Shown piece by piece: positions 7,689 to 47,766 of a stretch of DNA of 47,766 bases (position 1 is the first letter of the stretch; every line of letters begins with the position of its first letter). The DNA lies in the IMG/VR virus record IMGVR_UViG_3300009100_000005; one strand, written 5' to 3'. The position numbers and the translations under genes are program-made. The notes below the pieces were generated by a model. The model searched no databases, was not told where the DNA came from, and was given only the letters and a program-made list of their open reading frames with translations. Source of the DNA: a virus.

Positions 7689-8102
7689 TAGATATTGGGC
7701 CAGTGAGTAAGCTAGTATGACGGCTGCTATTCCTAAGCAAAATAGAAAACAGCCCATCTCACTCGCCCAATCTGATTTTACCTTAGCTTCGGCAATGACT
7801 CGTTTTATCATTGCTTCTTGCTGTTGCTCAGTTTGCTGTAAATGTTTAGTAGCATATTCGACGGCATCGTCGAAATCTTTAAGTGAGGCGAAGCAATGCG
7901 GTTTAGCATTTCTCGCATAGTGGTTGTGATTAGGTAGTAATACTACACCGAGTGTGTTCCATTCAGTAAACTTCCATTCTTGTTTACAAAACTCACAATG
8001 ATGAATGATATGTGGTTTTGCTCCATCGGTATCTATATGCTGTTCTCCACATCGAGGACACCATAGTATACATCTTACTGCATCAAATCCTATTTCAGCC
8101 AT
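7680..8102 (-). CDS. zinc-ribbon protein with C-terminal TM anchor
   Basis: CPRCGEQH...HHCEFC cysteine/histidine pairs; hydrophobic C-terminus; stop TAA is the loop of motif 7674-7688. Confidence 0.65.
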   Translation of the reverse strand: MAEIGFDAVRCILWCPRCGEQHIDTDGAKPHIIHHCEFCKQEWKFTEWNTLGVVLLPNHNHYARNAKPHCFASLKDFDDAVEYATKHLQQTEQQQEAMIKRVIAEAKVKSDWASEMGCFLFCLGIAAVILAYSLAQYLLK

Positions 8103-9016
8103 CAGTCCTCCGCTGGATAGAATCCTTCTAAAGTTACTTTAGAAGTATCTTCCATCTCTCTTCTGAACTCCATTTCCTCTTCCTCTTCTTGAGCAAACTT
8201 TGGTCGAGTTGAACCAGTCCAGCAACTATCATAGAAGCGACAGAATTTACACTGGCTAGAGTTAGATCGAGTTTCCTCCTTATGGATAAGGCCCAATGGA
8301 TTCTTTCTTCTGATAGCTCTGATTGTATCTCTTAATCGAAGCAATCTATCCTGAATGAAATTCTCATTAGGCACTATTAGGATTGGCGACATTATATCAG
8401 ACGTAGCCCTATTCTTTATTATCAGATAGAACGGCATTCCCATCGCTTTGGTATACCATTGAATCTGACCGTACCATTGGTCTGATATTTCGCCTGTCCT
8501 CTTTATCTTATCCCACGTATACTTTTTGACTGACTTGATTTCTAAGCCGTAGTTCCTGTCTTTGAAAACAAGAACACCATCAATGTGAGATATGATTTTA
8601 AACTTTACTACGTCTACACTATTAGTTTCTTGGTCTTCTATCTCGCAAGCAATATCTGTTATCTTCTCATATTCCGGCTTATTTCCACAAGCCGCAACGT
8701 GTAACCCTCCTTTTTCTAAATGCTCAAAGACTGTAGCCTCGTGTATATGTCCATCATATAACGATGCTTCGGATTCTGCTCCCCTAATAGATGTACTAAC
8801 ACCATTTGCCATTGCTTGATACAAGCAGAGTTGACAAATATTAAATTCGCTGCCGTGAAAGTGACCTCTTACTTTCGCCGGTTTAGCTTTAGCTGCATTC
8901 ATTCTGCACGCTTGGCAAGGCTGACTTTGATCTGATGTCTTTAGCGCCCCGCCATAATATGCATTACGAATGAACCAAGATGTCTCGTCGTTATGCGGCT
9001 TCAGGCTTACTTGCAT
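8102..9016 (-). CDS. Cas4/RecB-like PD-(D/E)XK exonuclease with Cys cluster
   Basis: HIDGVL...LEIKSVK (D...ExK), QWYGQIQWY (QxxxY), N-terminal CQAC and C-terminal CKFCRFYDSC cysteines. Confidence 0.65.
   Translation of the reverse strand: MQVSLKPHNDETSWFIRNAYYGGALKTSDQSQPCQACRMNAAKAKPAKVRGHFHGSEFNICQLCLYQAMANGVSTSIRGAESEASLYDGHIHEATVFEHLEKGGLHVAACGNKPEYEKITDIACEIEDQETNSVDVVKFKIISHIDGVLVFKDRNYGLEIKSVKKYTWDKIKRTGEISDQWYGQIQWYTKAMGMPFYLIIKNRATSDIMSPILIVPNENFIQDRLLRLRDTIRAIRRKNPLGLIHKEETRSNSSQCKFCRFYDSCWTGSTRPKFAQEEEEEMEFRREMEDTSKVTLEGFYPAED
8128..8142. repeat. junction palindrome CTAAAGTTACTTTAG
   Basis: Exact; read as KVTL near the end of 8102-9016; 25 nt upstream of ATG 8102. Confidence 0.95.
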
Positions 9017-17914: not shown

Positions 17915-18718
17915 TCATTGCCTTAATTGAAGTTGGGTTGGCTGATTGCCTTCGATCATAGTCAAGGTTTGACCTCTGAAGTTCGCTACTCCATTGGCCT
18001 TAGCTTGCTCGATCTGTAGCCTTAATTCCAATAACTTTATCTGTAACAAGGCGGGATTAGCAAAGCTTTGTGCCTCTATCTGCTTTCTTTCAGCATCTAC
18101 CTTTGCTGTAGCTAGCGCAGCTTCGGCACCCTCTTTGCCTTTTTGATTAGCCACTACTTGTGACGCAGCATTCTCGATATTATCTGGTAGGTCTGGTCTA
18201 CCGATAATTTGAATTGATTCCAATTCCAGCCACATCTGAGATTTCAAAACAGGCTTAAGAGAATCGGTTATCTTTTTCTGAATGCTCTCTTGATTAGCAA
18301 GAATACCATAAGCATCAAACTCAGCTATAGCGTTCTTAGCTTCGGTATTGACTCTCGCGTGAAGTAGTGGTTCAAGTCTGCTCTTTCTTGCTTCTGAATC
18401 CAAACCAAACTTGGTAACAAAAGCAGAGATGTCAGCATCGCTCTGTGGAGGATCAGCCGTAAACTGAATCTTCATACTGACTTGAACATTATCTTTAGTA
18501 GACCCTTGAACGTCTTCTGTTAGTGTAAACGTCTTGGCGTCATACTCGTATTCGGTTTGAGCAGGATTCATCGTTGAGACAAATCCATTCTCTGGTTTAA
18601 CTATCTGGCTGATACCAGTAGAGTTAGTCAGAATTAGTCTTGTTCCTACATCAGCGCTCTTGCAACCACTAATTAGGGTTGTCAGAACTAAAAAAACTCC
18701 GACGATAATCTTTCCCAT
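17915..18718 (-). CDS. lipoprotein with SPFH/band-7 (prohibitin/HflC-like) domain
   Basis: Signal peptide plus lipobox LISGC; Ala/Gln/Glu-rich helical C-terminal region typical of the SPFH family; ATG 9 nt after motif 18728. Confidence 0.55.
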   Translation of the reverse strand: MGKIIVGVFLVLTTLISGCKSADVGTRLILTNSTGISQIVKPENGFVSTMNPAQTEYEYDAKTFTLTEDVQGSTKDNVQVSMKIQFTADPPQSDADISAFVTKFGLDSEARKSRLEPLLHARVNTEAKNAIAEFDAYGILANQESIQKKITDSLKPVLKSQMWLELESIQIIGRPDLPDNIENAASQVVANQKGKEGAEAALATAKVDAERKQIEAQSFANPALLQIKLLELRLQIEQAKANGVANFRGQTLTMIEGNQPTQLQLRQ

Positions 18719-20994: not shown

Positions 20995-21481
20995 CGTGAT
21001 CCTCCAATTCTGAGATTGTCACGTTTTTAAGATAAGCCGGTTTTACCTCATCTGCATCTACCCATTCGTCGTCTGATTCATTATATGGTTCAAGCCTCCT
21101 TTCTTGTACTGATTCTCTCTTAGGTCTAACATCATCAGATTCGTATGTAAGAGCATAACTAAGAGCGCGCCATCTATTCTCATCATTTATGATATCATAA
21201 TCAATCTTATCGCCAGTTCTCGTTTGAACTTCAACCAATGAAAGATATTCTGCAAACATACGTTCGCTATTAAAGTGGTGTATTAGATCGTAATGCTCAA
21301 ATGCCAATATTCTCTTGTTAATGCTCTGCCAGATTTCCTCTAAAGTTACTTTAGAAAGTTTTTCAAGTGCCCTTCTCATCTGATTGGTTACACTTGGTAT
21401 TTCAACCCGCCCTGCACACTTGGTACAGAGCGGGTTGTTATTCTCCCAACTATATTTCAAGCACAGAATGCATTTAAGCAT
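20960..21481 (-). CDS. hypothetical protein (N-terminal Cys4 zinc ribbon)
   Basis: CILC...CTKC; internal motif at 21340. Confidence 0.6.
   Translation of the reverse strand: MLKCILCLKYSWENNNPLCTKCAGRVEIPSVTNQMRRALEKLSKVTLEEIWQSINKRILAFEHYDLIHHFNSERMFAEYLSLVEVQTRTGDKIDYDIINDENRWRALSYALTYESDDVRPKRESVQERRLEPYNESDDEWVDADEVKPAYLKNVTISELEDHDGKQKEVTPSS
21340..21354. repeat. junction palindrome CTAAAGTTACTTTAG
   Basis: Exact; inside 20960-21481. Confidence 0.95.
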
Positions 21482-22262
21482 TCACTGTCTCAGCCACCTC
21501 CTTTGATTGATCTGTTGGTGTCTCTTCAAATTGTGCGATGTGTTCTTTGATTTCTTCGAGAACCTTCTCGCCTTCGACAACTGGATCAAACGACTCGACA
21601 ATCTCTTCAACCTTTAGCTTATCAACCTGTGGTTCTGGATCAGGATCACCCTGGCATATGCTGTCGTGTGGTTCGATAACCATCGGCACTGGCGTTGACT
21701 TAGCCAACCAACCACGTTGATAGGCAATACGGCGAGCTAAAGTTACTCTAGCGCCTTCTTCGTCGTTGTTGGTTTCTGGATACTGTTCCTTGGCCTCTTG
21801 CAAAGTTAGTTGCCGACAACCGCCGGTAATAATAGCTTGGCCATTTTCGTATGATAGCACGACTTTATAGCCCCTAGCTGTCATACCAAGGTCAACTATA
21901 TTTGCACCTTTGAGTGTGCAGGAATCCATTGAAATTTGACCGGCGTGAGTCTGCTCCCACTTAGTGTAGTCCAAGTTGCATTGTCGCATAACCGTACGAT
22001 ACGTTGGACAATGATTAAAAGTTGCATCCTCGAAATGGCAGGTATCGAAGATCGTTTTTTGAAGTCTAGCTTTGTTAAAGTTAGCCCTCGTAAAGACGCA
22101 GTTAGAAAACGTAATGCCTTCCAAATCGAAAAGGGTGAAGTCTACGTCTGTGAAATCAGTGATACCGTAGGCTAATGCTTCTTTCATCAAAGCGTTTCTG
22201 CTAATGGCATTTTTGTTCTCGAAAATCGTTTTAGGATTCTCGCCAAGGGTGTTGATTTTCAT
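21474..22262 (-). CDS. pentapeptide-repeat protein
   Basis: About 100 aa of tandem A(D/N)LxX-like pentads: FSNCVFTRANFNKARLQKTIFDTCHFEDATFNHC...CNLDYTKWEQTHAGQISMDSCTLKGANIVDL. Confidence 0.75.
   Translation of the reverse strand: MKINTLGENPKTIFENKNAISRNALMKEALAYGITDFTDVDFTLFDLEGITFSNCVFTRANFNKARLQKTIFDTCHFEDATFNHCPTYRTVMRQCNLDYTKWEQTHAGQISMDSCTLKGANIVDLGMTARGYKVVLSYENGQAIITGGCRQLTLQEAKEQYPETNNDEEGARVTLARRIAYQRGWLAKSTPVPMVIEPHDSICQGDPDPEPQVDKLKVEEIVESFDPVVEGEKVLEEIKEHIAQFEETPTDQSKEVAETVNA
21737..21751. repeat. degenerate copy CTAAAGTTACTCTAG
   Basis: One mismatch; inside the pentapeptide-repeat gene (RVTL). Confidence 0.6.
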
Positions 22263-26194: not shown

Positions 26195-27391
26195 TTAGCT
26201 TTCCTGATCGTCCTCGTACTCCCACGAATTCAACTCGCCGTCGGATTCGTCGTCGTCGTGTGCGTCAGGATGCGTCCGCTCTAATTCAGCAGTATCGCCC
26301 TTGACGGTCGGAGGATTAGTAAGCTTGTCCATTTCCTTCTGTTCATTCGCAGCATTCAAAGCCGCCGCGCGCCGTTTATCGGCGAGGATTTCTTTCTTTG
26401 AACGGAAATCAATCGTTTTGATCCATTCCAAATCCTTACAAATAGCAAGAACTTCGGATTTGGAATAATGCTCTTTACCTAACAGAGCGCCGATAAACAT
26501 CTTGAATGGCAATGGAATCTGAATACCTACTTCGGACGCAAACATCTTTTTCAAGTCGTCACGGCTGAAAGCAGATTTCGGCGTTCCTTTGCCGCCGTCA
26601 GGTGAAGCCACTTGCTTCATATGTGAACGGACGGCATTGCGCGAAAGAGCCTTACCTTGTGTAACCATTTCATCGAGGATAGGCTGAACTTTTGCTTTCA
26701 GCTTGTTATCGTCGATTTTTTTGGTGGTTGGATCACGGAACGCATCAAGAAAGTCTTTTTGCGCAAACTGATCAGAACAAGTGTCGAGGGAAATAATCTC
26801 ATCCTTAACCAGGCTTGCCAAGTATGGCGACTCGTCAACACGCGCAACCTTTGAAATCCACATTTCAGATTTCTTGAGCAATTGCGCGATTTCCTTGTTT
26901 TTCTTGTTCATACCGCGAAATCCTCTGATATACGCGGCAATGGACATAAAAGACTCTTCCACGGTCTTATCATTGATGATAAATTGGGAAGCGAGAAGCT
27001 TATCCATTTCATCCTCTTTGATAACGCAAACGGGAAAGGTCTTATCAAGGAATAGTTGCTCACGTCTGCGAGCAACGTCTACCAGACCGCGACGTTGACG
27101 ACCGGAAATCAGGTAGAAATTACCATCTTTCCTCAGAAAACCTTGCGTCGGTACGCGAATGTAATTCTCTTTTATGTCGAGATACATTTCGGTAAGGTTA
27201 TCGTAAACCTCTTTCTTCAAAGACATTTTAGAGTCTTTGTCGAAATACATACGCTCCCAAATGGAAACGTACTCATCGCGTTCACTGCCAAGCTGCGGAA
27301 TGACATCCGTAGCAGATTTGACATTATCAAACGGAACGTTTACGAAATCGCCCGGTCGAATGATATTCTTTTGCGTCTTTTCTGTAGCCAT
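26195..27391 (-). CDS. ParB/KorB-like protein (ParB N-terminal domain plus HTH)
   Basis: Track ORF trimmed to ATG 27391 (AAGGAG SD); YLISGRQRRGL resembles the ParB GxRR box; NKEIAQLLKKSEMWISKV resembles the ParB HTH; acidic C-terminus. Confidence 0.55.
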   Translation of the reverse strand: MATEKTQKNIIRPGDFVNVPFDNVKSATDVIPQLGSERDEYVSIWERMYFDKDSKMSLKKEVYDNLTEMYLDIKENYIRVPTQGFLRKDGNFYLISGRQRRGLVDVARRREQLFLDKTFPVCVIKEDEMDKLLASQFIINDKTVEESFMSIAAYIRGFRGMNKKNKEIAQLLKKSEMWISKVARVDESPYLASLVKDEIISLDTCSDQFAQKDFLDAFRDPTTKKIDDNKLKAKVQPILDEMVTQGKALSRNAVRSHMKQVASPDGGKGTPKSAFSRDDLKKMFASEVGIQIPLPFKMFIGALLGKEHYSKSEVLAICKDLEWIKTIDFRSKKEILADKRRAAALNAANEQKEMDKLTNPPTVKGDTAELERTHPDAHDDDESDGELNSWEYEDDQES

Positions 27392-27417
27392 TTCTATTCT
27401 CCTTAAGGAAAAAAGGA

Positions 27418-27432
27418 CTAAAGTAACTTTAT
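27418..27432. repeat. palindrome variant CTAAAGTAACTTTAT
   Basis: Core exact; 26 nt upstream of the ParB-like ATG 27391. Confidence 0.9.
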
Positions 27433-27468
27433 TATTTGCTCTCAGGCACAAGCGTATGCGCCTTGCAA

Positions 27469-27483
27469 ATAAAGTAACTTTAG
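27469..27483. repeat. palindrome variant ATAAAGTAACTTTAG
   Basis: Core exact; upstream of the ParB-like gene. Confidence 0.9.
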
Positions 27484-27538
27484 TCAAATTGTCAAATATC
27501 TGATCTAAAAAAGAGCATACGCTCTAATTTAGTGGCTG

Positions 27539-32091: not shown

Positions 32092-32102
32092 AGTAACTTT
32101 AT
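32088..32102. repeat. palindrome variant CTAAAGTAACTTTAT
   Basis: Core exact; holds the upstream stop; its last two bases are the AT of terminase ATG 32101. Confidence 0.9.
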
Positions 32103-33984
32103 GGTTCGTAACGAAGTAGTAAAGAAATATCTGCCGAAGTTAATTGCTAGTTTTGCATTATACGCGAAGTTTAACCTTTGGATTACTGACAAGAAGATGC
32201 AACTTGTCAGGCTGGTTCTTAATAGAGCGCAGCGTTACGTAGTTCGGGAAATTCTGCGAAAGATCGCAGCGGGCATACCAGTCCGAATGTACGTGATCAA
32301 AGGTCGGCAGTTAGGCTTTACTACTTTGTTCACGGCCTTTATTTACTGGCTTTGTTCTTTGAATAAAAATAGGCGATTCCTCTTCGTTTCGCACGATATG
32401 GCGTCTGCCCAAAACATATGCGATAGGTTACAGAGCTACTATTACCATTCACATCCGGTATTACAACCGGAATTTAAGAAGATGAACCGAGAAATGGTTC
32501 ACTTTGCTACTCCTATTAAGAGTATCAATAATGGTAAAGAGGTCAGAAAAGACATAGGACTAGACTCCTTTATGATGGTGCGTACTGCCGATAATGAACA
32601 TCTCGGCAAGTCTTACACCTTCCAAGGAGCGCATCTGACCGAGTTTTGCTCGTGGCCTACACTTGGAATTGATGTTCCGAAGCGTATGATTTCGCTCCAA
32701 CAGGCGATTCCGAAGCTCCCGAATACCTTTATTTTCATCGAGAGTACGGCTCAAGGTGAGAATTATGGCAAGGAATTCTGGGATGATCCTGACAATGGGT
32801 ACGATAAGATATTCGTTTCGTGGCTTGCAGACGACGAATATAGAACTAAAGTTACTTTAGTAGATTACTTCGAGCTTTCTGTAAATCCTGAATCCAAGTA
32901 CGGAGATGAGATTTCAGAGCGAGAAAGAATCATATCGCAGCTTCAGTTCTGGTATCCAGAGATGGATTATTATAGCGAAAACTGTGATTTTCCAGATCAA
33001 GAAGGCGAAGATTACGAGGTTTGGCTGCAAAAAGAGTCAATGTGTCGGTTGCTCTGGCGTCGTGGGAAGATTGATACTGAATGTCTTGGCAACAAATGGG
33101 CATTCAAACAAGAGTATCCAACTATTCCCGAAGACGCTTGGGGTATGAAAACTCAATCCATCTTCTCCGCTCAACGATTGATTGAGATGGATGAGTATCG
33201 GAAGAAAGTACAAAAGCCAACACGCTATAGATATAGACACGACCATTCGGTTAGAGATTGTAACTTAAAGTTTCAAGAGCAATCGTATGGACACTTGCAA
33301 ATATTTAAACCACCTGAAAAGGAGAAGGTTTATGTCGCAGGCGCAGACGGGGCACAGGGAGTTAAAGGAGGTGATCACAGTTCGGTGGTGGTACTGGAAC
33401 TCCCCACTTTGGAAGAGGTTGCCACATTTAGCGATGTCATTCAGCCTGCCGAGTTCGCAGGTGTATGTAATTTTCTTGGCGAGTTGTACAACTGGTGCAA
33501 ACTCGGAGTCGAGCGAAACGACAAAGGAGGGTACGCAGCATTAGAGTATCTTCTGAAGAATTATCGGTATCCGAATCTTTACTACTATTTGCATCCATTT
33601 AAAGTTGCAATTAGTGGTGATGTGCAATGGGGTTATATCACTAATGATGACACAAAACAGATTATGGCTAGAGATGCTATGTACGCTGTTGACAATATGG
33701 ATGTTGTTGTTAACTCAGAAGAGTTGCTTTCGCAAATGAAATCCTTCGTGGAACATCCTAAGACGAAAGTGCTTGCGGCTTCTCCAGGTAAACACGATGA
33801 TATTGTTATGGCTTGGATGATTGCCATCCAAATGGCCAAGGACATTAAGATTCGTGCTTCTTCTCCGCCTCCGAAAACTGTCGGACTAACTCACGGTTAT
33901 ATGCGACAGCTAGTAGAGAAAAGAGATGGCAGAAGCAATTATGAGCGAGCCTTGAACAAACAAAGACGTAGGATTTCGTACTAA
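32101..33984 (+). CDS. terminase large subunit
   Basis: Walker-A-like VIKGRQLGFTT, FIESTAQGENYG, nuclease-domain GKHDDIVMAWMIA; 627 aa; directly upstream of the portal region. Confidence 0.88.
   Translation: MVRNEVVKKYLPKLIASFALYAKFNLWITDKKMQLVRLVLNRAQRYVVREILRKIAAGIPVRMYVIKGRQLGFTTLFTAFIYWLCSLNKNRRFLFVSHDMASAQNICDRLQSYYYHSHPVLQPEFKKMNREMVHFATPIKSINNGKEVRKDIGLDSFMMVRTADNEHLGKSYTFQGAHLTEFCSWPTLGIDVPKRMISLQQAIPKLPNTFIFIESTAQGENYGKEFWDDPDNGYDKIFVSWLADDEYRTKVTLVDYFELSVNPESKYGDEISERERIISQLQFWYPEMDYYSENCDFPDQEGEDYEVWLQKESMCRLLWRRGKIDTECLGNKWAFKQEYPTIPEDAWGMKTQSIFSAQRLIEMDEYRKKVQKPTRYRYRHDHSVRDCNLKFQEQSYGHLQIFKPPEKEKVYVAGADGAQGVKGGDHSSVVVLELPTLEEVATFSDVIQPAEFAGVCNFLGELYNWCKLGVERNDKGGYAALEYLLKNYRYPNLYYYLHPFKVAISGDVQWGYITNDDTKQIMARDAMYAVDNMDVVVNSEELLSQMKSFVEHPKTKVLAASPGKHDDIVMAWMIAIQMAKDIKIRASSPPPKTVGLTHGYMRQLVEKRDGRSNYERALNKQRRRISY
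32846..32860. repeat. junction palindrome CTAAAGTTACTTTAG
   Basis: Exact; inside the large terminase gene (RTKVTLVD). Confidence 0.95.
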
Positions 33985-34245: not shown

Positions 34246-36093
34246 ATGTCACCGTTAGAACAAGAAGCAAAAACAGGAGCAGATGCATACAACCTGTGGG
34301 CCGCTAGGATTCAAACGGCCATCTTCTGGCGTGCGAATCTGTGGAACGGTGACGCTCTCTGGAAGCGAGCATACCGGGATTACAAAGGTATGCAGTGGAA
34401 CGAGATGGTAGATGAAGGCCAGGATAAGGCATCGGATAATCCGGCAGATCAGATTACGATCAATATCCTGGCTTCTCAGATAATGACTCTTGCTCCATTT
34501 CTGGTTAATACAAATCCTGAGTACAAGGGTAAGGCCAGAAAGCCGGATGGTTATGTATCGTCAATGATTCAAGAAGCGGTACTTAACTACGAATGCGATA
34601 GAAAGAAAGTCTTCGATCAATTGCTGAAATCTGTTTACGATGATCTTATCATCGGTCACGGTGTAGCCAAAACGGGATTCACCCGTAAGATTGACGAAGC
34701 GACATTAGCTGCTGCTGGCGATATAGTTTATGAGGATTATATTGCTGATGAGTCAGTCTATGCAAAAAGAGTCAGACCGTTCGATTTTTTCTTTGATCCA
34801 AATGCCTCTGAGCGTAACTTGGAGACGGCAAGGTGGTGTTGTGAACGTTACTACAAATATGCAACAGACGTTGCGGTTAATGATGCTTACAAGTCGTCAG
34901 TTACTCGCAAGTTGCGTAGTGGTGAATACAAGCTCAACACTAAAAACCTTGTCTACCCTGAGTACAGCAGTGATCAGGTGCCAGGATATCCAAGCGGAGC
35001 TACTGAAGAGACATACATCAATCCAGAATCTGAGCTTGCGATTCTGTATGAGATTTGGGATAAGAAGCATAACAAGTATTACGTATTTGCTGATGGCGTG
35101 CCTGAGCCTTTGCTTGAGGCGAGGTCGCCATACGACTACTTGAAGGGAGAATTCCCCTATAAGAAAGTTGATTTTGTTCTGTTGCCTGACGAATGGTATG
35201 GTGTTGGTGTACACTATATGATCCAAGATCAGGCATATGAATTGAACCGACACAGAACGTTTAGCTTCCATCACAGACGCAGATTTTCTGCTAGAAAGTA
35301 TGAAGCTTTAAACTCAATAGAGAATGACGAACTTGAAAAGCTTGCTGGCGGTGAAGATGGGGCATACATAAAAGTTCCTGCAACTGGATCGGTTAAGCCT
35401 ATCGAAGATGTTCCTATGCCACAAGATTATATCTTGGTGGAACAACTGATTAAGGCTGATATCGAAACAATGACTGGCGTGGATCAATTGATTCGTGGTG
35501 GTCAACTTCCAAGCAGAACAACTGCCGGTGAAGTAGGGACAAGAGTTAACGTCTTTACTTCTAAGCTTGCGCACAAGATTAAATCGGTTGACGATTTCTA
35601 TCTTGGAATAGGAATGCAGCTAAATACTCATATTGCTGCCAACTATTCAAGGTCGCAAGTTGTACGTGTTGTCGGTGCCCAAGGTGAGTTCTTTGTTGAA
35701 TACTCTCCACAAGACCTCAAGGATGAAATCATCATTGAGATGGAGACTATCAGCGCGCCTAAGTATGATCCGGCTGTTGATAAGAATCAGCGTATACAGT
35801 TGTTTCAGATCATTGCTCAGATGTGGCAGACAGCTATGCAAGCTGGACAACAGTTACCGATTAACTTTCAAGAGTTGTTTAAATGGGTCATTGAGGCGTT
35901 TGATTATAAGGATATTGGTAGGTTCTTTGCTCCGGCGAATCAACCTATTCAACCTCCACAAGTAATTACGTCTAGTCAGTTGGGACAACAGTTACCACAA
36001 CAACAGACAATGAATTCGCAAGACTTGTTAAGACAAATTTCTGGCCAAGCAACTGCTGCTGGTGGCCAAAACGGAAATCCATCAGGAATTTAG
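34246..36093 (+). CDS. putative portal protein
   Basis: 615-aa ORF downstream of the terminase and upstream of scaffold/capsid; Gln-rich C-terminus; call rests on position and size. Confidence 0.6.
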   Translation: MSPLEQEAKTGADAYNLWAARIQTAIFWRANLWNGDALWKRAYRDYKGMQWNEMVDEGQDKASDNPADQITINILASQIMTLAPFLVNTNPEYKGKARKPDGYVSSMIQEAVLNYECDRKKVFDQLLKSVYDDLIIGHGVAKTGFTRKIDEATLAAAGDIVYEDYIADESVYAKRVRPFDFFFDPNASERNLETARWCCERYYKYATDVAVNDAYKSSVTRKLRSGEYKLNTKNLVYPEYSSDQVPGYPSGATEETYINPESELAILYEIWDKKHNKYYVFADGVPEPLLEARSPYDYLKGEFPYKKVDFVLLPDEWYGVGVHYMIQDQAYELNRHRTFSFHHRRRFSARKYEALNSIENDELEKLAGGEDGAYIKVPATGSVKPIEDVPMPQDYILVEQLIKADIETMTGVDQLIRGGQLPSRTTAGEVGTRVNVFTSKLAHKIKSVDDFYLGIGMQLNTHIAANYSRSQVVRVVGAQGEFFVEYSPQDLKDEIIIEMETISAPKYDPAVDKNQRIQLFQIIAQMWQTAMQAGQQLPINFQELFKWVIEAFDYKDIGRFFAPANQPIQPPQVITSSQLGQQLPQQQTMNSQDLLRQISGQATAAGGQNGNPSGI

Positions 36094-36095
36094 GA

Positions 36096-36110
36096 CTAAA
36101 GTTACTTTAG
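36096..36110. repeat. junction palindrome CTAAAGTTACTTTAG
   Basis: Exact; 13 nt upstream of ATG 36124. Confidence 0.95.
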
Positions 36111-36123
36111 TCGAAAGGGAGAT

Positions 36124-36621
36124 ATGAAAAATCTATTCGCGGTTCTTAGTTTGGTTCTGGCGTTTGGTGTAGTAGCGAACGCTCAACAGTTTCGATTTAA
36201 CGTTTCTGCTCTTAATAAGGAGCAGTATAGACCGGAGGCACTGAATCCGAAAAATATCGTCGAGTACGCGCAAGCCGTTTCTGCCGAGGTTGAAGCAAGG
36301 GCTGTCCAAGCTGGCGAGTTTAGCTTTGCCGGTGTTGGAACTTATCAGCGAGACTTTAGTAACGATCTTAACACTGTTCTGGTCGGAGCAAGATTGAGAT
36401 ATAAGAAAAGTTTCTTCAGTCCGTTTGCAAGTTTTCACGTTGGATACGAGTCGGCGGATGGTCTTGAGAAAGAGTTCTGCCGTGAAATCCAATTCGGCGC
36501 AGACCTTGACTTCGGACGATTCACCGTTCGGCCTTTGGCCTATGGCCAGAAGCGAAAGGGCGCATTGCTATCGCCTGCCGAGAATAGATTCTATTCCGGC
36601 ATTGGTATCAATATTAAATAA
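36124..36621 (+). CDS. secreted outer-membrane beta-barrel protein (OmpX/OmpW-size moron)
   Basis: Signal peptide MKNLFAVLSLVLAFGVVANA/QQ; 165 aa with alternating hydrophobic strands; sits between the portal gene and the tRNA island. Confidence 0.55.
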   Translation: MKNLFAVLSLVLAFGVVANAQQFRFNVSALNKEQYRPEALNPKNIVEYAQAVSAEVEARAVQAGEFSFAGVGTYQRDFSNDLNTVLVGARLRYKKSFFSPFASFHVGYESADGLEKEFCREIQFGADLDFGRFTVRPLAYGQKRKGALLSPAENRFYSGIGINIK

Positions 36622-36626
36622 GTTAT

Positions 36627-36703
36627 GTCGGGTGGTGTATGACGCACGCTCTCCATTCCTGAAAGGAGGGAAGAGTAGGGTTTAAATCCCTGCCCCGATG
36701 CCA
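36627..36703 (+). ncRNA. tRNA-like element with encoded CCA but no canonical D-arm (possible pseudo-tRNA, GAA-type loop)
   Basis: Acceptor GTCGGGT / CCCCGAT (one G-U, one mismatch); T-arm TAGGG-TTTAAAT-CCCTG; 5-nt variable region; loop CTGAAAG; 3' G-CCA at 36700-36703. Confidence 0.25.
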
Positions 36704-36911
36704 AGCTAGCCGTCTTATTCTCCGTCTTCCTGTTCTCGAAAGAGTACCAACGGAGTTGGCGGCTACCATTGGGCCGAACCGCTGTGTTATGTGGCAGCGC
36801 TAGGCGACAGAGGGCATAGGCCACGTAACGTCTATGCCCTCCAGTTCAGGAGCGAATGCTCGTAGGAACTACATTCTATCATTCTGAATGTTTCTACACC
36901 TCTAGTCGCTC
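36704..36911 (+). ncRNA. densely structured non-coding segment (nested helices, GAAA tetraloop)
   Basis: Pairings: TAGCCG 36707-12 / CGGCTA 36760-65; CTCCGT 36720-25 / ACGGAG 36750-55; CTC-GAAA-GAG 36735-44; CGCTG 36780-84 / CAGCG 36795-99; AGGGCATAG 36811-19 / CTATGCCCT 36832-40; GGAGCGA 36849-55 / TCGCTCC 36906-12. Confidence 0.35.
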
Positions 36912-36926
36912 CTAAAGTTACTTTAG
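36912..36926. repeat. junction palindrome CTAAAGTTACTTTAG
   Basis: Exact; ends 1 nt before tRNA-Tyr. Confidence 0.95.
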
Positions 36927-36927
36927 T

Positions 36928-37013
36928 GCCATTGTTGGGAAGTTGGTATCCCGACCCGTCTGTAAAACGGGTGTTCTTGACAGGACGTGAGAGTTCGAGT
37001 CTCTCCAATGGCA
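36928..37013 (+). tRNA. tRNA-Tyr (anticodon GTA), class II with long variable arm
   Basis: Acceptor GCCATTG / CAATGGC; D-arm GGGA-AGTTGGTA-TCCC; anticodon arm CCCGT-CTGTAAA-ACGGG; 17-nt variable arm; T-arm GAGAG-TTCGAGT-CTCTC; discriminator A; no encoded CCA; starts 1 nt after motif 36912-36926. Confidence 0.85.
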
Positions 37014-37037
37014 TAGGGCGAATGCTTTAGGGAGTAC

Positions 37038-37119
37038 ATCCTAAACTTTAGGTCGTTGGTTCGAGTCCAACCCCGTGCCCATTTTATGGTACGGGTAGCT
37101 CAGTTGGCAGAGCGAAAGT
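37038..37119 (+). tRNA. circularly permuted (3' half before 5' half) tRNA-Arg(CCT)-like gene
   Basis: 3' half is 37038-37079: loop ATCCTAA, ACTTT, variable AGGTC, T-arm GTTGG-TTCGAGT-CCAAC, acceptor CCCGTGC. 5' half is 37089-37119: GTACGGG-TA-GCTC-AGTTGGCA-GAGC-G-AAAGT. All four stems form only when the halves are joined in permuted order. Confidence 0.5.
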
Positions 37120-37214
37120 GTTATCTCTCTATTACTCTTGTCGCCCTTAAGTTTGAGACGAATCTCAAATACTTGTCGTCTCAATTAGTTTCTGGCGTAA
37201 ATGCCAGATAAGAG

Positions 37215-37229
37215 CTAAAGTAACTTTGG
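37215..37229. repeat. degenerate copy CTAAAGTAACTTTGG
   Basis: One mismatch; followed by TGCC, as is copy 36912. Confidence 0.6.
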
Positions 37230-37239
37230 TGCCCTCTCG

Positions 37240-37254
37240 CTAAAGTTACTTTAG
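37240..37254. repeat. junction palindrome CTAAAGTTACTTTAG
   Basis: Exact; 23 nt upstream of ATG 37278; enclosed by the CCCTCTC/GAGAGGG stem. Confidence 0.95.
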
Positions 37255-37277
37255 CTTCTGATAGAGAGGGTAATACT

Positions 37278-37802
37278 ATGCCAATGTATGAATTTTATTG
37301 CGAGTGTTGCAAAAATAGATGGGAAGAGTGGTATCCCTGGAAGCATAATGATGGTGTCACCTATACGGATGATCCCACTATGCAGGAGTGCCACGAGGAT
37401 TCTGAGCATAAGGTAGAATTCCTTGATTCTCTTTACTCTCCACGACCAGATGATATGTGGATGGGAGTAATGACAGACGTAGGATACTTTACTGATAAAA
37501 AGAAATGGGATGATGCAAGACATCGTGATAGATTTGGCAATAAGCGTGAGTTGTACGATGTGACTAATAGAGGTGATCGTGAGTACCTTACTAAACACGT
37601 CGAGAGGGAAAAGAAAGAGCAAGAAGAGAAAGATTTTAATCAGATTGAAAAGGTTGTTGCTAAGAATGTTATGGATCACGATTTTAGTCCTGACAATACT
37701 CATATCATTCGAGGTCAGCCTGAAGCCTTTGCCGAAGATGTGGATATTGTCGAAATGAAACAAGACGGTTTTACCGAACAGCAAATCGCTGCTTACAAGT
37801 AA
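37278..37802 (+). CDS. FmdB-type zinc-ribbon protein
   Basis: N-terminal MPMYEFYCECCKNRWE matches the MPxYEYxCxxCG FmdB/CxxC_CxxC_SSSS pattern; its SD GAGAGGG can pair with CCCTCTC 37232-37238. Confidence 0.55.
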   Translation: MPMYEFYCECCKNRWEEWYPWKHNDGVTYTDDPTMQECHEDSEHKVEFLDSLYSPRPDDMWMGVMTDVGYFTDKKKWDDARHRDRFGNKRELYDVTNRGDREYLTKHVEREKKEQEEKDFNQIEKVVAKNVMDHDFSPDNTHIIRGQPEAFAEDVDIVEMKQDGFTEQQIAAYK

Positions 37803-37811
37803 GGAGGCGTT

Positions 37812-38429
37812 ATGGGTGGATATGTCCATTATGATAGAATTGATGTGGGTTATCCAAAACCACAAACAATCATTTCAGATTCATTGAAGAAAGAGTTTAA
37901 TGATATGCCGGAAGATCGCAAGGAAAAAGTTATCAATCTTCTCCAAGCTAAGATTCGTCTGCTTGAGCAGAAGTGGATTGCTGATGTGAATATGTATGAG
38001 ACTCAGCAAGCAGAGGAAGATCGTAAATTCTTTCTCCATTATCGCAAGCCTACTAAACTAGAGCGAGAGGTGTTGATGAATGCCAGTGATAACATCGATG
38101 AGGTACTTCCGTATAAGCCTGTCGAAGATACTATCAAGAGAAACATCTTTGATAGGAGTGCTGCGTTTGACAGTCTGTTTGGTCTGAAAACTGATACAGT
38201 GTGTATGGGTCACGATGATGATCTATACGAATCTTTGGATATGACTCCCGTAGAGCCATTACCGACTAAAGTAACTTTAGTTGAGCAGCTCAACAAAGAA
38301 TTGGATCAGCTGACTATGCTCGTCGAAAGGATGGGTAATGTTTGTATTGTCGTTAATAAGAGAACACATAATATCGTATACAGTAACGAAACTGAAGATA
38401 CGGTAACAATCACATTCGAGAGGAAGTAA
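37812..38429 (+). CDS. hypothetical protein
   Basis: 205-aa ORF with an AAGGAGG SD; internal motif at 38266. Confidence 0.65.
   Translation: MGGYVHYDRIDVGYPKPQTIISDSLKKEFNDMPEDRKEKVINLLQAKIRLLEQKWIADVNMYETQQAEEDRKFFLHYRKPTKLEREVLMNASDNIDEVLPYKPVEDTIKRNIFDRSAAFDSLFGLKTDTVCMGHDDDLYESLDMTPVEPLPTKVTLVEQLNKELDQLTMLVERMGNVCIVVNKRTHNIVYSNETEDTVTITFERK
38266..38280. repeat. junction palindrome CTAAAGTAACTTTAG
   Basis: Exact; inside 37812-38429. Confidence 0.95.
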
Positions 38430-39248: not shown

Positions 39249-40295
39249 ATGCCGAACGTAAACTTCGAGCAATTGGCAACGACCACGTTGCGTCTGCACA
39301 GACCCGAACTTGCCGATAATATCACCGGCAAGAACGCGGCTATTGTTCAAATGAAACAGCGTGGTTTCGTTGAGGAAGAGGAAGGCGCTCTTTCCTACAA
39401 CGAACCCATCCTGTTTGACGAGAACAGTACAACTGGTTCCTATCGAGATTGGGACCCAATTGATCTGACTCCGCAAGACGGTATGACCAACGCTGAGTTC
39501 TTGATTGCTCAGCTTGCAGGATCTTTGATGATTTCTGGTCGTCAGGAGTTCATCAACAGCGGTAATCGTACCCGTATCATCAATCTTCTTACAGCCAAGA
39601 CGATGCAGCTTCAGAAGTCCCTGACTCTGCTCGTTAACCGTCAGTCCCACGGTGACGGTACTGGAAATAGCGGTAAAGACCTGACTGGCTTCGCTGCCCT
39701 AGTTGAGAGCGGTGCGGGTGGTCTGTGGTCTGTCGTTGGTGGCATTGACTCCCAAACTGATGTTTGGTGGAGGAATCAATGGCTAGACTTCGACGTTGCT
39801 TTGACCAGTGCTGCCGGTCTTTCCTTTGGTAACGTCCAAGATATGGCTGAGTTCCGCCGTTTCGTAACCACAATGGTTAACGCTGCGATGCGTAACTCTG
39901 AGCGTACTACGCTTCTTCTGTCAGACCAGATGGTTCACGAGTATATGGAATCCACCATTACTCAGAACGAACGGTATGTCAAAGAAGGTTCGATGGCTGA
40001 TGCTAATCTGGCTAACGCTGGATTCGTCAACATCTTCTTCAAAAACATTCCCTGGGTGATGGATGACGATATGCCTGGATTCTCTTTGGTTGCCGGTTCT
40101 GACAATCACGAAATCCTTGGTCTGAACAACGACTTTCTCCATCTTAAGATTGGTAAAGGCAAGAACTTCGTCGTGACTCCTTTCGTCCGTCCGCCTGACA
40201 AAGACGGTAAGGTTGCACAAGTCCTGTTCTACGCTAACTATACGATTGCGAATCGTCAGCGTCAGTTCAGAATTGATAACATTGACTTCGCATAA
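39249..40295 (+). CDS. putative major capsid protein
   Basis: 348-aa ORF following the scaffold-like gene; size, position and composition are typical of HK97-fold capsid proteins; not verified by homology. Confidence 0.65.
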   Translation: MPNVNFEQLATTTLRLHRPELADNITGKNAAIVQMKQRGFVEEEEGALSYNEPILFDENSTTGSYRDWDPIDLTPQDGMTNAEFLIAQLAGSLMISGRQEFINSGNRTRIINLLTAKTMQLQKSLTLLVNRQSHGDGTGNSGKDLTGFAALVESGAGGLWSVVGGIDSQTDVWWRNQWLDFDVALTSAAGLSFGNVQDMAEFRRFVTTMVNAAMRNSERTTLLLSDQMVHEYMESTITQNERYVKEGSMADANLANAGFVNIFFKNIPWVMDDDMPGFSLVAGSDNHEILGLNNDFLHLKIGKGKNFVVTPFVRPPDKDGKVAQVLFYANYTIANRQRQFRIDNIDFA

Positions 40296-45935: not shown

Positions 45936-46688
45936 ATGGCACTTGCTAGACTAAATGATTTCGTTGCCGGAACTCTTATCTTAGATTCGCAGGTAGACTC
46001 CGAGTTCAACCAACTTGTTGGAGCACTTAATGGTACAGACTCGATTGAAATATTGCATAAGTTCTCCCACGCGACTACTCCCGTTATAAACGCAAATCAA
46101 CTCAATACTGCCGTAACTGCCCTGATTGTAAAAGGTCAACAGAACTCAGTAGATACCTTTAAAATCAAAGCTAATGGGTACATTGTTGGCTATCCTAAGA
46201 CTATTAACTCGGCTTTGCCTAGCGTTGGCAATGTTGGTGCTGGTGTTGATACATTGTTATCGTATGATATTCCCATAAATAGTCTAGCAGCTGATCTGGA
46301 TTACTTTGAAGCTGAATTTGGTGGCATTTTTGCTACTAATAACAACGACAAGAGGGTTGTAATCAGTATTGGTGGGGTCACGTTTGAAGACACAGGCGTA
46401 ATAGACATAGACGGTCTTGCTTGGAATTTTAGGGTGAAAGGGATAAGAGCAAGCTCTACTTCTTTGATTTTAAATGGTTGTTTTGAGGGAGCATTATTGC
46501 AAACGGATAGCGCAGGTACTAACGCTGCTACAGGGATAGGCGGTAGATTTGATGCCAGAGTTTCTAATCCTACTGGTTTAGCTAACCTTGGTTCCAACGT
46601 ATTAAATCTACTTGTTCAGGCAGAAGGCGTTGCCGACAACGATATAACTATCAGATCGGTCAAGGTTGCTGTTTGCCAGATGAGCTAA
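45936..46688 (+). CDS. tail fibre/receptor-binding protein 2
   Basis: Shares its N-terminal module with 44649-45398; motif 45910 lies upstream with a fused AGGAG; stop lies in motif 46685. Confidence 0.55.
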   Translation: MALARLNDFVAGTLILDSQVDSEFNQLVGALNGTDSIEILHKFSHATTPVINANQLNTAVTALIVKGQQNSVDTFKIKANGYIVGYPKTINSALPSVGNVGAGVDTLLSYDIPINSLAADLDYFEAEFGGIFATNNNDKRVVISIGGVTFEDTGVIDIDGLAWNFRVKGIRASSTSLILNGCFEGALLQTDSAGTNAATGIGGRFDARVSNPTGLANLGSNVLNLLVQAEGVADNDITIRSVKVAVCQMS

Positions 46689-46699
46689 AGTAACTTTAG
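46685..46699. repeat. junction palindrome CTAAAGTAACTTTAG
   Basis: Exact; holds the stop of 45936-46688; fused GGAGG, 9 nt upstream of ATG 46709. Confidence 0.95.
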
Positions 46700-46708
46700 G
46701 AGGAAATT

Positions 46709-47683
46709 ATGGCGTTGAATGCCTTTCAAACAGAAGTCCAAAAGCTTGCCAAAAAGCTAGGACTGCAAGGCTCTGACGAACAGAGAGTTTACGCCAGTCC
46801 TGAGTATAGCCAATTGGTCGGCAAGTATTTTGGCCAGATTGACTTACCGGCAGGAGTTACCGAAGATATGGTAACTTTCAGAACTCCTTTCGGTATTGAG
46901 TATAAAGATCAATATGGCTACATCCATAAGCTCGAAAGGAATATGGATGCCAGATCGCCACAACTTGGTCAAGTTAATGAGAAGACTACTGATCGCCCTG
47001 CCATACTCCCACTAGAGAAGACAAACCCTGGGATAGCAGAAGCGATGAAGCTTTTGACTGAGAGAACATCTCAGCCTATGTCGTCAGGATTGCCTAAGCT
47101 TGATCCAGATACTCTGGCAGAATTGCAAGCTATAGCTAAGGGCAATCAAGATCAGCTTGACCAGTTGTTCGAGAGGGGCAGAGGCGATCTGATTACTGGT
47201 TTGTATGGTAGTGGCAATAACCGTTCTACTCTGGCTAATGATGCTTCTGCTAGGTTACTGCAAGAACAAGGTATAGTTCAATCTGATAAACTTGGTAAGG
47301 ATGCCGAAAGAGAATTGGCAGCTAGGGCAGGATCGAGAGATGCAGCAATAAACTTGAGAGGTCAAGATATTCAATACTTGATGGGATTGCTTGGTCAAGA
47401 TACTGCTCGTGCTGTTCCTTCTGCTCAATTGTCTCAACAGCAATCTGAATTGAGAGAGAACTCAAGACAGTTCGATTTACAATATTTGTTAGAGCAAGAG
47501 AAGATGAAGCAGCAACAGCGTAGTGGTCTTATGAGTGCATTGGCTGGAATTGCTAGTGCTGGTCTATCGTTGATACCGGGTGTTGGTCCAATCTTAGGTG
47601 CTGCTTCTAGCTCTATCTTTGGTGGATTAACCGGAGGAAAAGCCGGACGACCGCCAGTAGGTGGCGATGGTGGGTACGGCTAA
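46709..47683 (+). CDS. hypothetical protein with Gly-rich hydrophobic C-terminus; putative internal virion protein
   Basis: 324-aa ORF; ATG 9 nt after motif 46685-46699 with GGAGG; the C-terminal SGLMSALAGIASAGLSLIPGVGPILGAASS segment runs into the terminal overlap. Confidence 0.65.
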   Translation: MALNAFQTEVQKLAKKLGLQGSDEQRVYASPEYSQLVGKYFGQIDLPAGVTEDMVTFRTPFGIEYKDQYGYIHKLERNMDARSPQLGQVNEKTTDRPAILPLEKTNPGIAEAMKLLTERTSQPMSSGLPKLDPDTLAELQAIAKGNQDQLDQLFERGRGDLITGLYGSGNNRSTLANDASARLLQEQGIVQSDKLGKDAERELAARAGSRDAAINLRGQDIQYLMGLLGQDTARAVPSAQLSQQQSELRENSRQFDLQYLLEQEKMKQQQRSGLMSALAGIASAGLSLIPGVGPILGAASSSIFGGLTGGKAGRPPVGGDGGYG

Positions 47684-47766
47684 AACTAAAGTAACTTTAG
47701 TAGGAGAATGATATGCAAAATGAAGAAGAGCTGAGACAAATCCTAGCTGGATTACAAGAAAGGCAA
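47644..47766. repeat. terminal overlap, identical to 1-123
   Basis: Same 123 nt as the window start; genome unit is 47,643 bp. Confidence 0.9.
47686..47700. repeat. junction palindrome CTAAAGTAACTTTAG
   Basis: Exact; the same physical copy as 43-57 (terminal overlap). Confidence 0.95.

Follow-up and report, generated by a model that had tools for sequence, protein, structure and literature searches.

A probable cluster of small RNA genes with Y RNA modules and a tRNA-Tyr gene in the late operon of an SU10-like podophage

The virus record IMGVR_UViG_3300009100_000005 (IMG/VR), a stretch of 47,766 nucleotides (nt) referred to below as the window, includes at positions 36622–37277 an island of about 650 nt which we consider likely to be a compact group of genes for small non-coding RNAs, including Y RNAs that would act on the host. 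Its place is an accessory slot of variable content within the late operon of a podophage. Its elements are, in order, a tRNA-like element, three hairpins, a hairpin Y RNA (Y1), tRNA-Tyr(GUA), a YrlA RNA (Y2), a possible mini Y stem (Y3) and palindrome hairpins. Y RNAs normally partner Ro60, and the two form a system of RNA surveillance whose conservation extends from bacteria to humans. The core of the island is a known family, the Y RNAs, in a new setting: a small podophage in which they are fused to a tRNA and in which Ro60 is lacking.

YrlA is a bacterial Y RNA which mimics tRNA and is known from Salmonella, Mycobacterium smegmatis and more than 250 other species. Its paired ends form a Ro60-binding stem with the sequence GNCGAAN0-1G and its body consists of a T arm, an acceptor-like stem-loop and a D arm. 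It is cleaved by RNase P, and in M. smegmatis a 7-bp acceptor-like stem permits this cleavage. The second Y RNA of the bacteria studied (YrlB, Yrn2) is a simple stem with a pyrimidine-rich loop (all PMC4201824).

Y RNA modules around the tRNA-Tyr gene

The segment 37015–37150 (plus strand; Y2) is, by its sequence and predicted fold, a member of the YrlA family, a tRNA-like module closed by a putative Ro60-binding stem. It matches the full Rfam model RF02553 (positions 1–114) with 59.8 bits and E = 7.9e-13 in a search of 36400–37500 (1.1 kb, E ≤ 10), and its fold has a z-score of −4.0. The closing stem, GGGCGA/UCGCCC, pairs 37015–37021 with 37141–37147 and carries GGCGAAUG at 37017–37024, which conforms to GNCGAAN0-1G. 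The second stem follows and leads to the tRNA-like domain, with a T arm (GUUGG-UUCGAGU-CCAAC), an 8-bp acceptor-like stem-loop (CCCGUGCC/GGUACGGG) and a D arm with GG (AGCUCAGUUGGCAGAGC); the T- and D-loop sequences are canonical. Closing stem with GGCGAAUG, second stem and tRNA-like domain thus stand in the same order as in YrlA, from which Y2 differs in its head-to-tail fusion to tRNA-Tyr, in having no Ro60 gene nearby, in its 8-bp acceptor-like stem and in its score below the family threshold. Given this 8-bp stem, the Y2 RNA may also be split by RNase P. The published YrlA search used the criterion of a same-strand Ro60 gene within about 4 kb (PMC4201824); Y2 has no such neighbour, the genome having no detected Ro60 gene.

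An earlier note on this DNA, made from its letters and without database searches, had described permuted tRNA halves after the tRNA-Tyr gene. The order T arm, acceptor-like stem-loop, D arm (about 37052–37113) is indeed present, but it belongs to the tRNA-like module of YrlA and not to a split tRNA. A circularly permuted or split tRNA gene was rejected as a candidate: the module has no anticodon arm and is enclosed by a Y RNA stem carrying the motif given above, as in YrlA. RNAalifold analysis of the window YrlA with nine phage homologues gave compensatory changes at 20 of 28 pairs, the co-varying helices being the closing stem, stem 2, the T arm and the acceptor-like stem. The last two played no part in the filter by which homologues were selected and their covariation is unaffected by it. 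Bacterial loci with the YrlA subtype of Y2 are in many cases from Acidobacteriota and also from Proteobacteria and others; the best bacterial match, from Sphingomonas (72.5%), is uninformative on the host.

Directly upstream is a genuine tRNA-Tyr(GUA) gene, as the note had stated (36927–37014, plus strand). It is identified by ARAGORN and by the Rfam tRNA model (49.8 bits against a gathering score of 29), has a long variable arm and does not encode CCA. It is the sole tRNA of the genome and lies in the accessory slot. Its 3′ end directly adjoins the 5′ end of Y2, giving a flush junction at 37014/37015.

On the other side of the tRNA-Tyr, 36848–36913 (plus strand; Y1) is probably a hairpin Y RNA resembling YrlB, judging from its module layout, its match to the covariance model R1 described below and its fold (z −4.5). 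The closing stem AGGAGCGA/UCGCUCCU is followed by an internal loop (AUGCUC on one side, ACCUCUAG on the other), a second stem (GUAGGAAC/GUUUCUAC) and a pyrimidine-rich loop, UAUCAUUCU. Y1 starts with AGGAGCGAAUGCUCGUAGGAACUACAU and finishes with CUCUAGUCGCUCCU, and a nearly identical closing stem and internal loop occur in the YrlA of the window (AGGGCGAAUGCUUUAGGGAGUACAU...CUCUUGUCGCCCU), the closing-stem motif common to the two being CGAAUGC...UGUCGC. In both, the closing stem is perfect, the CGAAUGC motif is kept and the second stem is intact. The 5′ half of Y1 also agrees with the Rfam YrlA consensus ...CgaAUGCuuggGgaaCUAc; its body is a simple stem with a pyrimidine-rich loop where YrlA has the tRNA-like body. 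In its CGAA motif, AGCGAAUG, the first G is replaced by A, a variant also found in a Ro60-adjacent Y RNA of another phage (locus L265). Y1 lies 100 nt upstream of the YrlA and displays the features of hairpin Y RNAs: CGAA, a stem-bulge-stem structure, a pyrimidine-rich loop and a YrlA neighbour. Its long hairpin with CGAA in the 5′ strand, stem-bulge-stem and small pyrimidine-rich loop resembles YrlB/Yrn2 and Yrl1/Yrl2 of the Thermus phage phiLo (PMC4201824, PMC12135203); unlike Y1, which is defined by sequence and structure, those RNAs are defined by Ro60 binding and lie beside a Ro60 gene.

The segment 37153–37184 (plus strand; Y3), UUGAGACGA-AUCUCAAAUACUUG-UCGUCUCAA with AUCUCAAAUACUUG as its loop, is tentatively regarded as a minimal Y-type closing stem on the strength of its motifs. 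Two mutually exclusive hairpins had been noted here, TTGAGA-cgaa-TCTCAA at 37153–37168 and the pairing of TTGAGACG (37153–37160) with CGTCTCAA (37177–37184), and both occur at exactly these coordinates. Y3 corresponds to the longer one, which is also the pairing chosen in the minimum-energy fold (z −3.5). It has a 9-bp closing stem, the ACGAAU and ACUUG-UCG motifs of Y RNAs and both flanks of the internal loop. Y1 has the layout N4-CGA / AUGC.. / stem 2 / ..CUUG / UCG-N4, which Y3 follows except for the second stem, and the layout of Y1 is common to 21 Y RNAs from other phage contigs.

These modules, trimmed and normalized for length, were used to build R1, a model of 45 positions which includes no sequence from the window. 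Trimmed constructs were used since MAFFT mis-aligned the 3′ strands of full-length hairpin Y RNAs, and R1 is thus short and weak. When the whole window was searched with filters off (95 kb searched), its best match was Y3 (16.8 bits, E = 0.039) and its second-best Y1 (14.8 bits, E = 0.13). These two matches fall within the island, on the plus strand.

Y RNAs and Ro60 in other phages and in this one

Y RNAs for comparison were retrieved from IMG/VR contigs by patterns derived from the shared motif and were filtered for pairing of the closing and second stems. An initial Y-stem pattern matched seven loci, of which six proved to be coincidences within coding sequences and were discarded, and among 197 looser pattern matches only about 15–30 passed the pairing filters. 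About 25 Y RNA modules in 14 phage loci were left. In loci L169 and L265 the Y RNAs are directly upstream of phage genes with TROVE and vWA_Ro60 domains and, because of this position, are on sequence evidence genuine Ro60 partners.

In 9 of the 14 loci the Y RNAs lie in or beside tRNA arrays, mostly 0–11 nt from the flanking tRNA. The 424-kb jumbo phage IMGVR_UViG_3300049049_000146 (L129; 635–3164, minus strand) carries five Y RNAs and includes the same order as the window: two hairpin Y RNAs, the nearer one 7 nt away, then tRNA-Tyr and two YrlA copies. YrlA-like and hairpin Y RNAs within tRNA arrays were also observed in L183, L256, L283 (four of them), L289, L169, L242 and L247. A further locus, L159 (11728–12938), has three tandem Y RNAs, one hairpin and two YrlA-like, followed by a gene for a 264-aa von Willebrand A protein without TROVE. 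In the literature we found no description of Y RNAs inside phage tRNA arrays; one preprint speculates on such an arrangement for Bas63.

When 50,697 phage genomes were searched with the island by BLAST, a single match of 71 nt resulted. It falls on the tRNA-like core of a YrlA without annotation, which belongs to the cultured Klebsiella phage KP13-26 (L446, OP617743.1; 70247–72380). The gene for a Ro60-like 476-aa "hypothetical protein" of this phage, with DUF2828, DUF7788 and a weak vWA_Ro60 match, is followed by about 700 unannotated bases, which include two YrlA-like RNAs (40.1 and 32.5 bits), and then by an array of 13 tRNAs.

The complete 47.6-kb SU10-like podophage itself encodes no recognizable Ro60. 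Pfam searches covered all ORFs (open reading frames) from 151 aa upwards apart from the major capsid gene, which was identified with PHROGs. They gave neither TROVE nor vWA_Ro60, and likewise no DUF2828 or DUF7788, domains that mark the divergent Ro60-like proteins of phages such as KP13-26. The Ro60 proteins of L169 and L265 had no counterpart in the genome by tblastn, hmmsearch or hhalign (best hhalign probability 0.9%), and phmmer comparison of four unannotated ORFs of 378–562 aa with PDB sequences retrieved no Ro60. An AlphaFold2 single-sequence model of the unannotated 467-aa ORF is all-helical and of low confidence (predicted local distance difference test score 54).

Phage modules of Ro60 and Y RNA have been described in mycobacteriophages, CcrColossus, Bacillus phage G, phiLo, Listeria phage CKA15 and, with gp130, Bas63; in these published accounts the phage Y RNAs all accompany a Ro60 or Ro60-like protein of the phage (PMC4201824, PMC12135203, PMC12282133, PMC11482910). 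The island shares with them, and with L169, L265 and KP13-26, phage-encoded Y RNAs, often near tRNA genes. It differs in that the phages described are mostly large and have the protein, whereas the 47.6-kb podophage has the RNAs alone.

The accessory slot and the remaining elements of the island

The window comprises an entire phage genome in circular form: bases 1–123 are exactly repeated at 47644–47766, and this terminal direct repeat closes the assembly to a unit of 47,643 bp. Separate assemblies of the same phage (Logan, JGI, ENA) measure 47,645 and 47,787 nt. The genome is of the podovirus type with an SU10/P22 kind of portal. The family A DNA polymerase and the primase-helicase (Pfam/PHROGs) are on the minus strand, and the large terminase (32101–33984), the portal (34246–36093), an SU10-type adaptor and the major capsid protein (39249–40295, PHROGs) on the plus strand. 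Genes are typically separated by less than 100 nt. The island occurs in the plus-strand late operon between the genes of a 165-aa signal-peptide protein resembling outer-membrane proteins (36124–36621, TAA stop at 36619–36621) and of a zinc-ribbon protein (37278–37802, ATG at 37278). Neither a sigma-70-like promoter on the plus strand nor an intrinsic terminator was detected within 36000–37900. The 165-aa protein has a typical signal peptide and its 175-aa counterpart in the related locus L124 a weak Pfam match to outer-membrane beta-barrels; its gene looks like a moron-type outer-membrane protein gene within the structural operon. Other accessory-looking genes, all on the minus strand, are those for an SPFH/Band 7 protein (17915–18718), a pentapeptide-repeat protein (21474–22262), a Cas4/PD-(D/E)XK-like exonuclease (8102–9016) and a 430-aa protein with a ParB-like segment (26195–27487).

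A search of 5.8 billion proteins for homologues of the portal revealed relatives with up to 69% identity. Those with portals of 48–63% identity have neither the island nor a tRNA and show no large gap after the portal gene; the contig of the 69% relative stops about 300 nt after this gene and does not cover the slot. A portal-based scan of IMG/VR for homologues of the island found none. Two Logan/ENA copies of the locus are identical to the window across the island and have one single-nucleotide polymorphism each elsewhere. In the relatives with 48–63% portal identity the slot after the portal holds variable small genes. One of them, in L324 (6353–6601), encodes an anti-defence protein of the Acb2/Tad1-hairpin type, resembling anti-CBASS/Thoeris sponges. 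An outer-membrane beta-barrel protein gene lies after the portal in L124 and upstream of the terminase in L323, and a relative carries an endonuclease VII gene after or near the portal. Because relatives without the island carry other genes in the slot, the island is lineage-specific cargo in a hot spot which elsewhere holds counter-defence genes.

The upstream third of the island begins with an element at 36627–36703 (plus strand), 5 nt past the stop codon of the 165-aa gene. Its centroid fold is a cloverleaf (z only −1.9). The acceptor/T-arm minihelix is sound and GCCA is encoded at the 3′ end; the element also has a T loop UUUAAAU, a poor D arm and an imperfect anticodon stem. ARAGORN reports "tRNA-Phe(gaa)" at the 80% threshold (-ps80) and nothing at default thresholds, and the Rfam search at E ≤ 10 gave no tRNA match, the sole match being to mascRNA and non-significant (E = 7.7). 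Because it passes neither the Rfam tRNA nor the default ARAGORN thresholds, this element counts, on its sequence features, as tRNA-like rather than as a tRNA gene. Its use as an attP integration site was considered and rejected, since no integrase was present among the scanned ORFs and the UUUAAAU T loop is unlike those of real tRNAs.

Three hairpins follow on the plus strand. Hairpin a (36704–36772; −23.3 kcal/mol, z −2.6) consists of an 8-bp basal stem (36707–36714/36758–36765), a 6-bp middle stem and the tip CUC-GAAA-GAG at 36735–36744; a GAAA-capped hairpin had been noted here and is found within this long hairpin, 36707–36765. Hairpin b (36773–36805; −14.8 kcal/mol, z −1.8) has the form GCC / CGCUGU-loop-GCAGCG / GGC. 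Hairpin c (36810–36841; −21.7 kcal/mol, z −6.8), a perfect G+C-rich stem of 12 bp with an 8-nt loop and no U tract, was not called as a terminator and could be a processing or stability element. Neither Rfam nor 2.7 Mb of fetched phage loci provided a match to hairpins a–c, and blastn of 36622–36848 against these loci and 120 bacterial loci gave nothing beyond the Y1 motif. A further small hairpin, UCUGGC-GUAAAU-GCCAGA (plus strand), lies downstream of Y3; it had been noted in its DNA form, TCTGGC-gtaaat-GCCAGA, and is at exactly 37191–37208.

A sequence at 36912, listed in the earlier note as a motif of the island, is present but is not specific to it: it is one of about 69 copies of a 15-nt palindrome, CTAAAGT(A/T)ACTTTAG, in the 47.6-kb genome, where about 2.5 would be expected even with three mismatches allowed. 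For 48 of the copies an ORF start follows within 40 nt, and they often adjoin the Shine-Dalgarno sequence; sites of the palindrome include 43–57, 36096–36110, 36912–36926, 37215–37254 and 46685–46699. The copy at 36912–36926, CTAAAGTTACTTTAG, lies between Y1, which it overlaps by 2 nt, and tRNA-Tyr, whose 5′ end it abuts. Two neighbouring copies (37215–37229 and 37240–37254, within 37212–37259; fold −36.6 kcal/mol, z −8.9) are able to pair with each other over about 20 bp, and the resulting hairpin would immediately precede the ribosome-binding site of the zinc-ribbon gene. In related phages (loci L121–L124, L325) a 7-N-7 palindrome is about as dense, with a sequence particular to each phage: CTAGAGT-N-ACTCTAG, CTGAAGT-N-ACTTCAG, TTAAACT-N-AGTTTAA and TTCAAAT-N-ATTTGAA were observed. 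As both arms co-vary between lineages, these sequences point to a role of the palindrome as a hairpin or as the site of a co-evolving dimeric binding protein. A scan of IMG/VR for the 15-nt palindrome gave almost only single chance matches; one 41-kb contig has several near-matches, and the parts of it that were examined have neither tRNA nor Y RNA.

Competing explanations and possible functions

The earlier note had proposed a large ornate RNA or an intron-like element for this segment, and part of what it described is borne out. The segment 36622–37277 contains merely overlapping ORFs of 30–77 aa, none of them supported, and it is densely structured: 36622–36926 folds with −116.9 kcal/mol against −90.8 ± 4.4 for dinucleotide-shuffled sequences (z −5.96, none of 100 shuffles as good) and 37015–37277 with −101.5 against −67.3 (z −6.90). 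This very strong predicted structure over the whole segment, the known occurrence of GOLLD in tRNA arrays (according to a reference within PMC9569102) and the approximately 220 nt without assignment are what a single RNA of about 650 nt enclosing the tRNA, whether similar to GOLLD, ROOL or HEARO or of a new class, has in its favour. We nevertheless regard such an RNA as very improbable. Rfam 15 models for group I introns, GOLLD, ROOL, HEARO, RNase P and tmRNA have no match at E ≤ 10 in 36400–37500 or, in a repeated search, in 36600–36926, and GOLLD, ROOL and HEARO have none at gathering score anywhere in the whole window. The centroid fold and the folds of separate modules consist of independent local hairpins without long-range helices, although the minimum-energy fold of 36622–36926 does pair 36626–36631 with 36805–36810. 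Relatives do without the island altogether. The island reads instead as a cluster of separate small RNA genes, because its Y RNA and tRNA modules (Y1, tRNA-Tyr and YrlA) have free-standing counterparts in other phages and because the genome-wide palindrome, typical of gene starts, divides it at 36912. The tRNA-like element and the three hairpins downstream of it have no such counterparts. What the island has in common with GOLLD, ROOL and group I introns is a structured non-coding region beside a phage tRNA; it differs in matching none of their models and in being made of small independent modules. Even less credence is due to a group I or other intron, or to a split or permuted tRNA which would need splicing or circularization: the order of T arm, acceptor-like stem and D arm does resemble a circular permutation, but the lack of an anticodon arm and the conserved enclosing Y RNA stem fit YrlA, no intron model matches at E ≤ 10, and ARAGORN detected neither a tmRNA nor a credible intron-containing tRNA.

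Several points weigh against our interpretation as a cluster of Y RNA and other small RNA genes. Y2 scores below the RF02553 gathering threshold (59.8 against 69 bits), so that Rfam in gathering mode reports the tRNA alone; YrlA-like RNAs of other phages likewise reach only 38–58 bits. Y3 has no second stem and lacks the final G of GNCGAAN0-1G, and the whole-window E-values of Y1 and Y3 (0.13 and 0.039) are marginal and come from a short model of trimmed constructs. Since the comparison set was collected with a window-derived pattern and a pairing filter, part of the covariation in the two Y stems is built in by the selection. About 220 nt (36627–36846) have neither a homologue in the material searched nor an assigned role, and the other copies of the island are too similar to it (they differ by one polymorphism each, outside the island) for a covariation test of this part. 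That the host has a Ro60 is an assumption, and the transcripts of the cluster are predicted from sequence.

Some of these points would also fit a different history, in which tRNA-Tyr is functional and the other modules are decaying remnants of a horizontally acquired array of tRNA and Y RNA genes, useless without a phage Ro60. The degenerate tRNA-like element, the truncated Y3, the sub-threshold YrlA, the lack of a detected Ro60 gene and the relatives that manage without the island all agree with it. We consider decay unlikely, since Y1 and Y2 retain their closing stems, CGAAUGC and second stems, and Y2 canonical T and D loops, in a tightly packed genome, and since the separately assembled Logan/ENA copies are identical across the island. 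Another proposal, compatible with a cluster of small RNA genes, concerns 36627–36846, which would comprise cis elements of the upstream mRNA: a 3′ end directed by RNase P, with protective or processing hairpins. The start 5 nt past the stop codon, the good acceptor/T minihelix with encoded CCA and poor D and anticodon arms, and the very stable 12-bp stem of hairpin c speak for this idea; the mascRNA match is non-significant and the argument depends on predicted fold and position, and we regard it as possible, somewhat short of an even chance. mascRNA recruits RNase P and so forms the 3′ end of MALAT1. The likeness to mascRNA/MALAT1 and to tRNA punctuation, in which tRNA or tRNA-like structures flush to other RNAs let RNase P and 3′ enzymes set the ends, is one that we infer, and on its score the element of the island is not a member of the mascRNA family.

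If the island is, as we prefer, a cluster of small RNA genes, it would be co-transcribed with the late genes. Host RNase P would cut the 5′ ends of tRNA-Tyr and of the tRNA-like element, and 3′ processing of the tRNA at 37014/37015 would make the 5′ end of the YrlA. The released Y RNAs could bind host Ro60 (Rsr) through their CGAA-containing closing stems, and the tRNA-like or loop modules could engage PNPase or tRNA enzymes, so that host RNA decay or repair would be redirected or titrated. The tRNA-Tyr would supply or replace the tRNA which is destroyed by several anti-phage systems.

Known systems form the background to these ideas. Host PNPase is a binding partner of a phage Ro60 with its Yrl RNAs (PMC12135203), a Ro60-like phage protein encoded beside a tRNA array counters a defence system (PMC11482910) and, in bacteria, damage to tRNAs elicits a response of the rsr-yrlA-rtcBA operon (PMC7790460). 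Both Retron-Eco7 and Septu cleave tRNA-Tyr, and infection can be rescued by a tRNA-Tyr of the phage (PMC11555353, PMC13096335). The window shares a phage-borne tRNA-Tyr with T5 (against Retron-Eco7) and T6 (against Septu), from which it differs in that a counter-defence role of its tRNA-Tyr is suggested by analogy. An RNA-only cassette that captures or decoys host Ro60 and PNPase, and possibly RtcB repair, as counter-defence, with Y RNAs as regular but overlooked members of phage tRNA arrays, their ends set by the flanking tRNAs, is a tentative proposal which we rate below an even chance. That the lone tRNA-Tyr and the Y RNAs form a kit against tRNA-directed immunity is, by analogy, a tentative idea, which would fit but is less likely to be right than wrong.

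Since Y RNAs adjoin tRNA arrays (in 9 of 14 loci and in KP13-26), the observations imply that the annotation of phage tRNA clusters is routinely incomplete and that the ends of Y RNAs are made by tRNA-processing enzymes. The podophage pairs Y RNAs with tRNA-Tyr, the very tRNA which several defence systems cut. If our interpretation is correct, this points to an RNA-only route by which a phage may exploit or disarm host Ro60 and PNPase without a Ro60 of its own.

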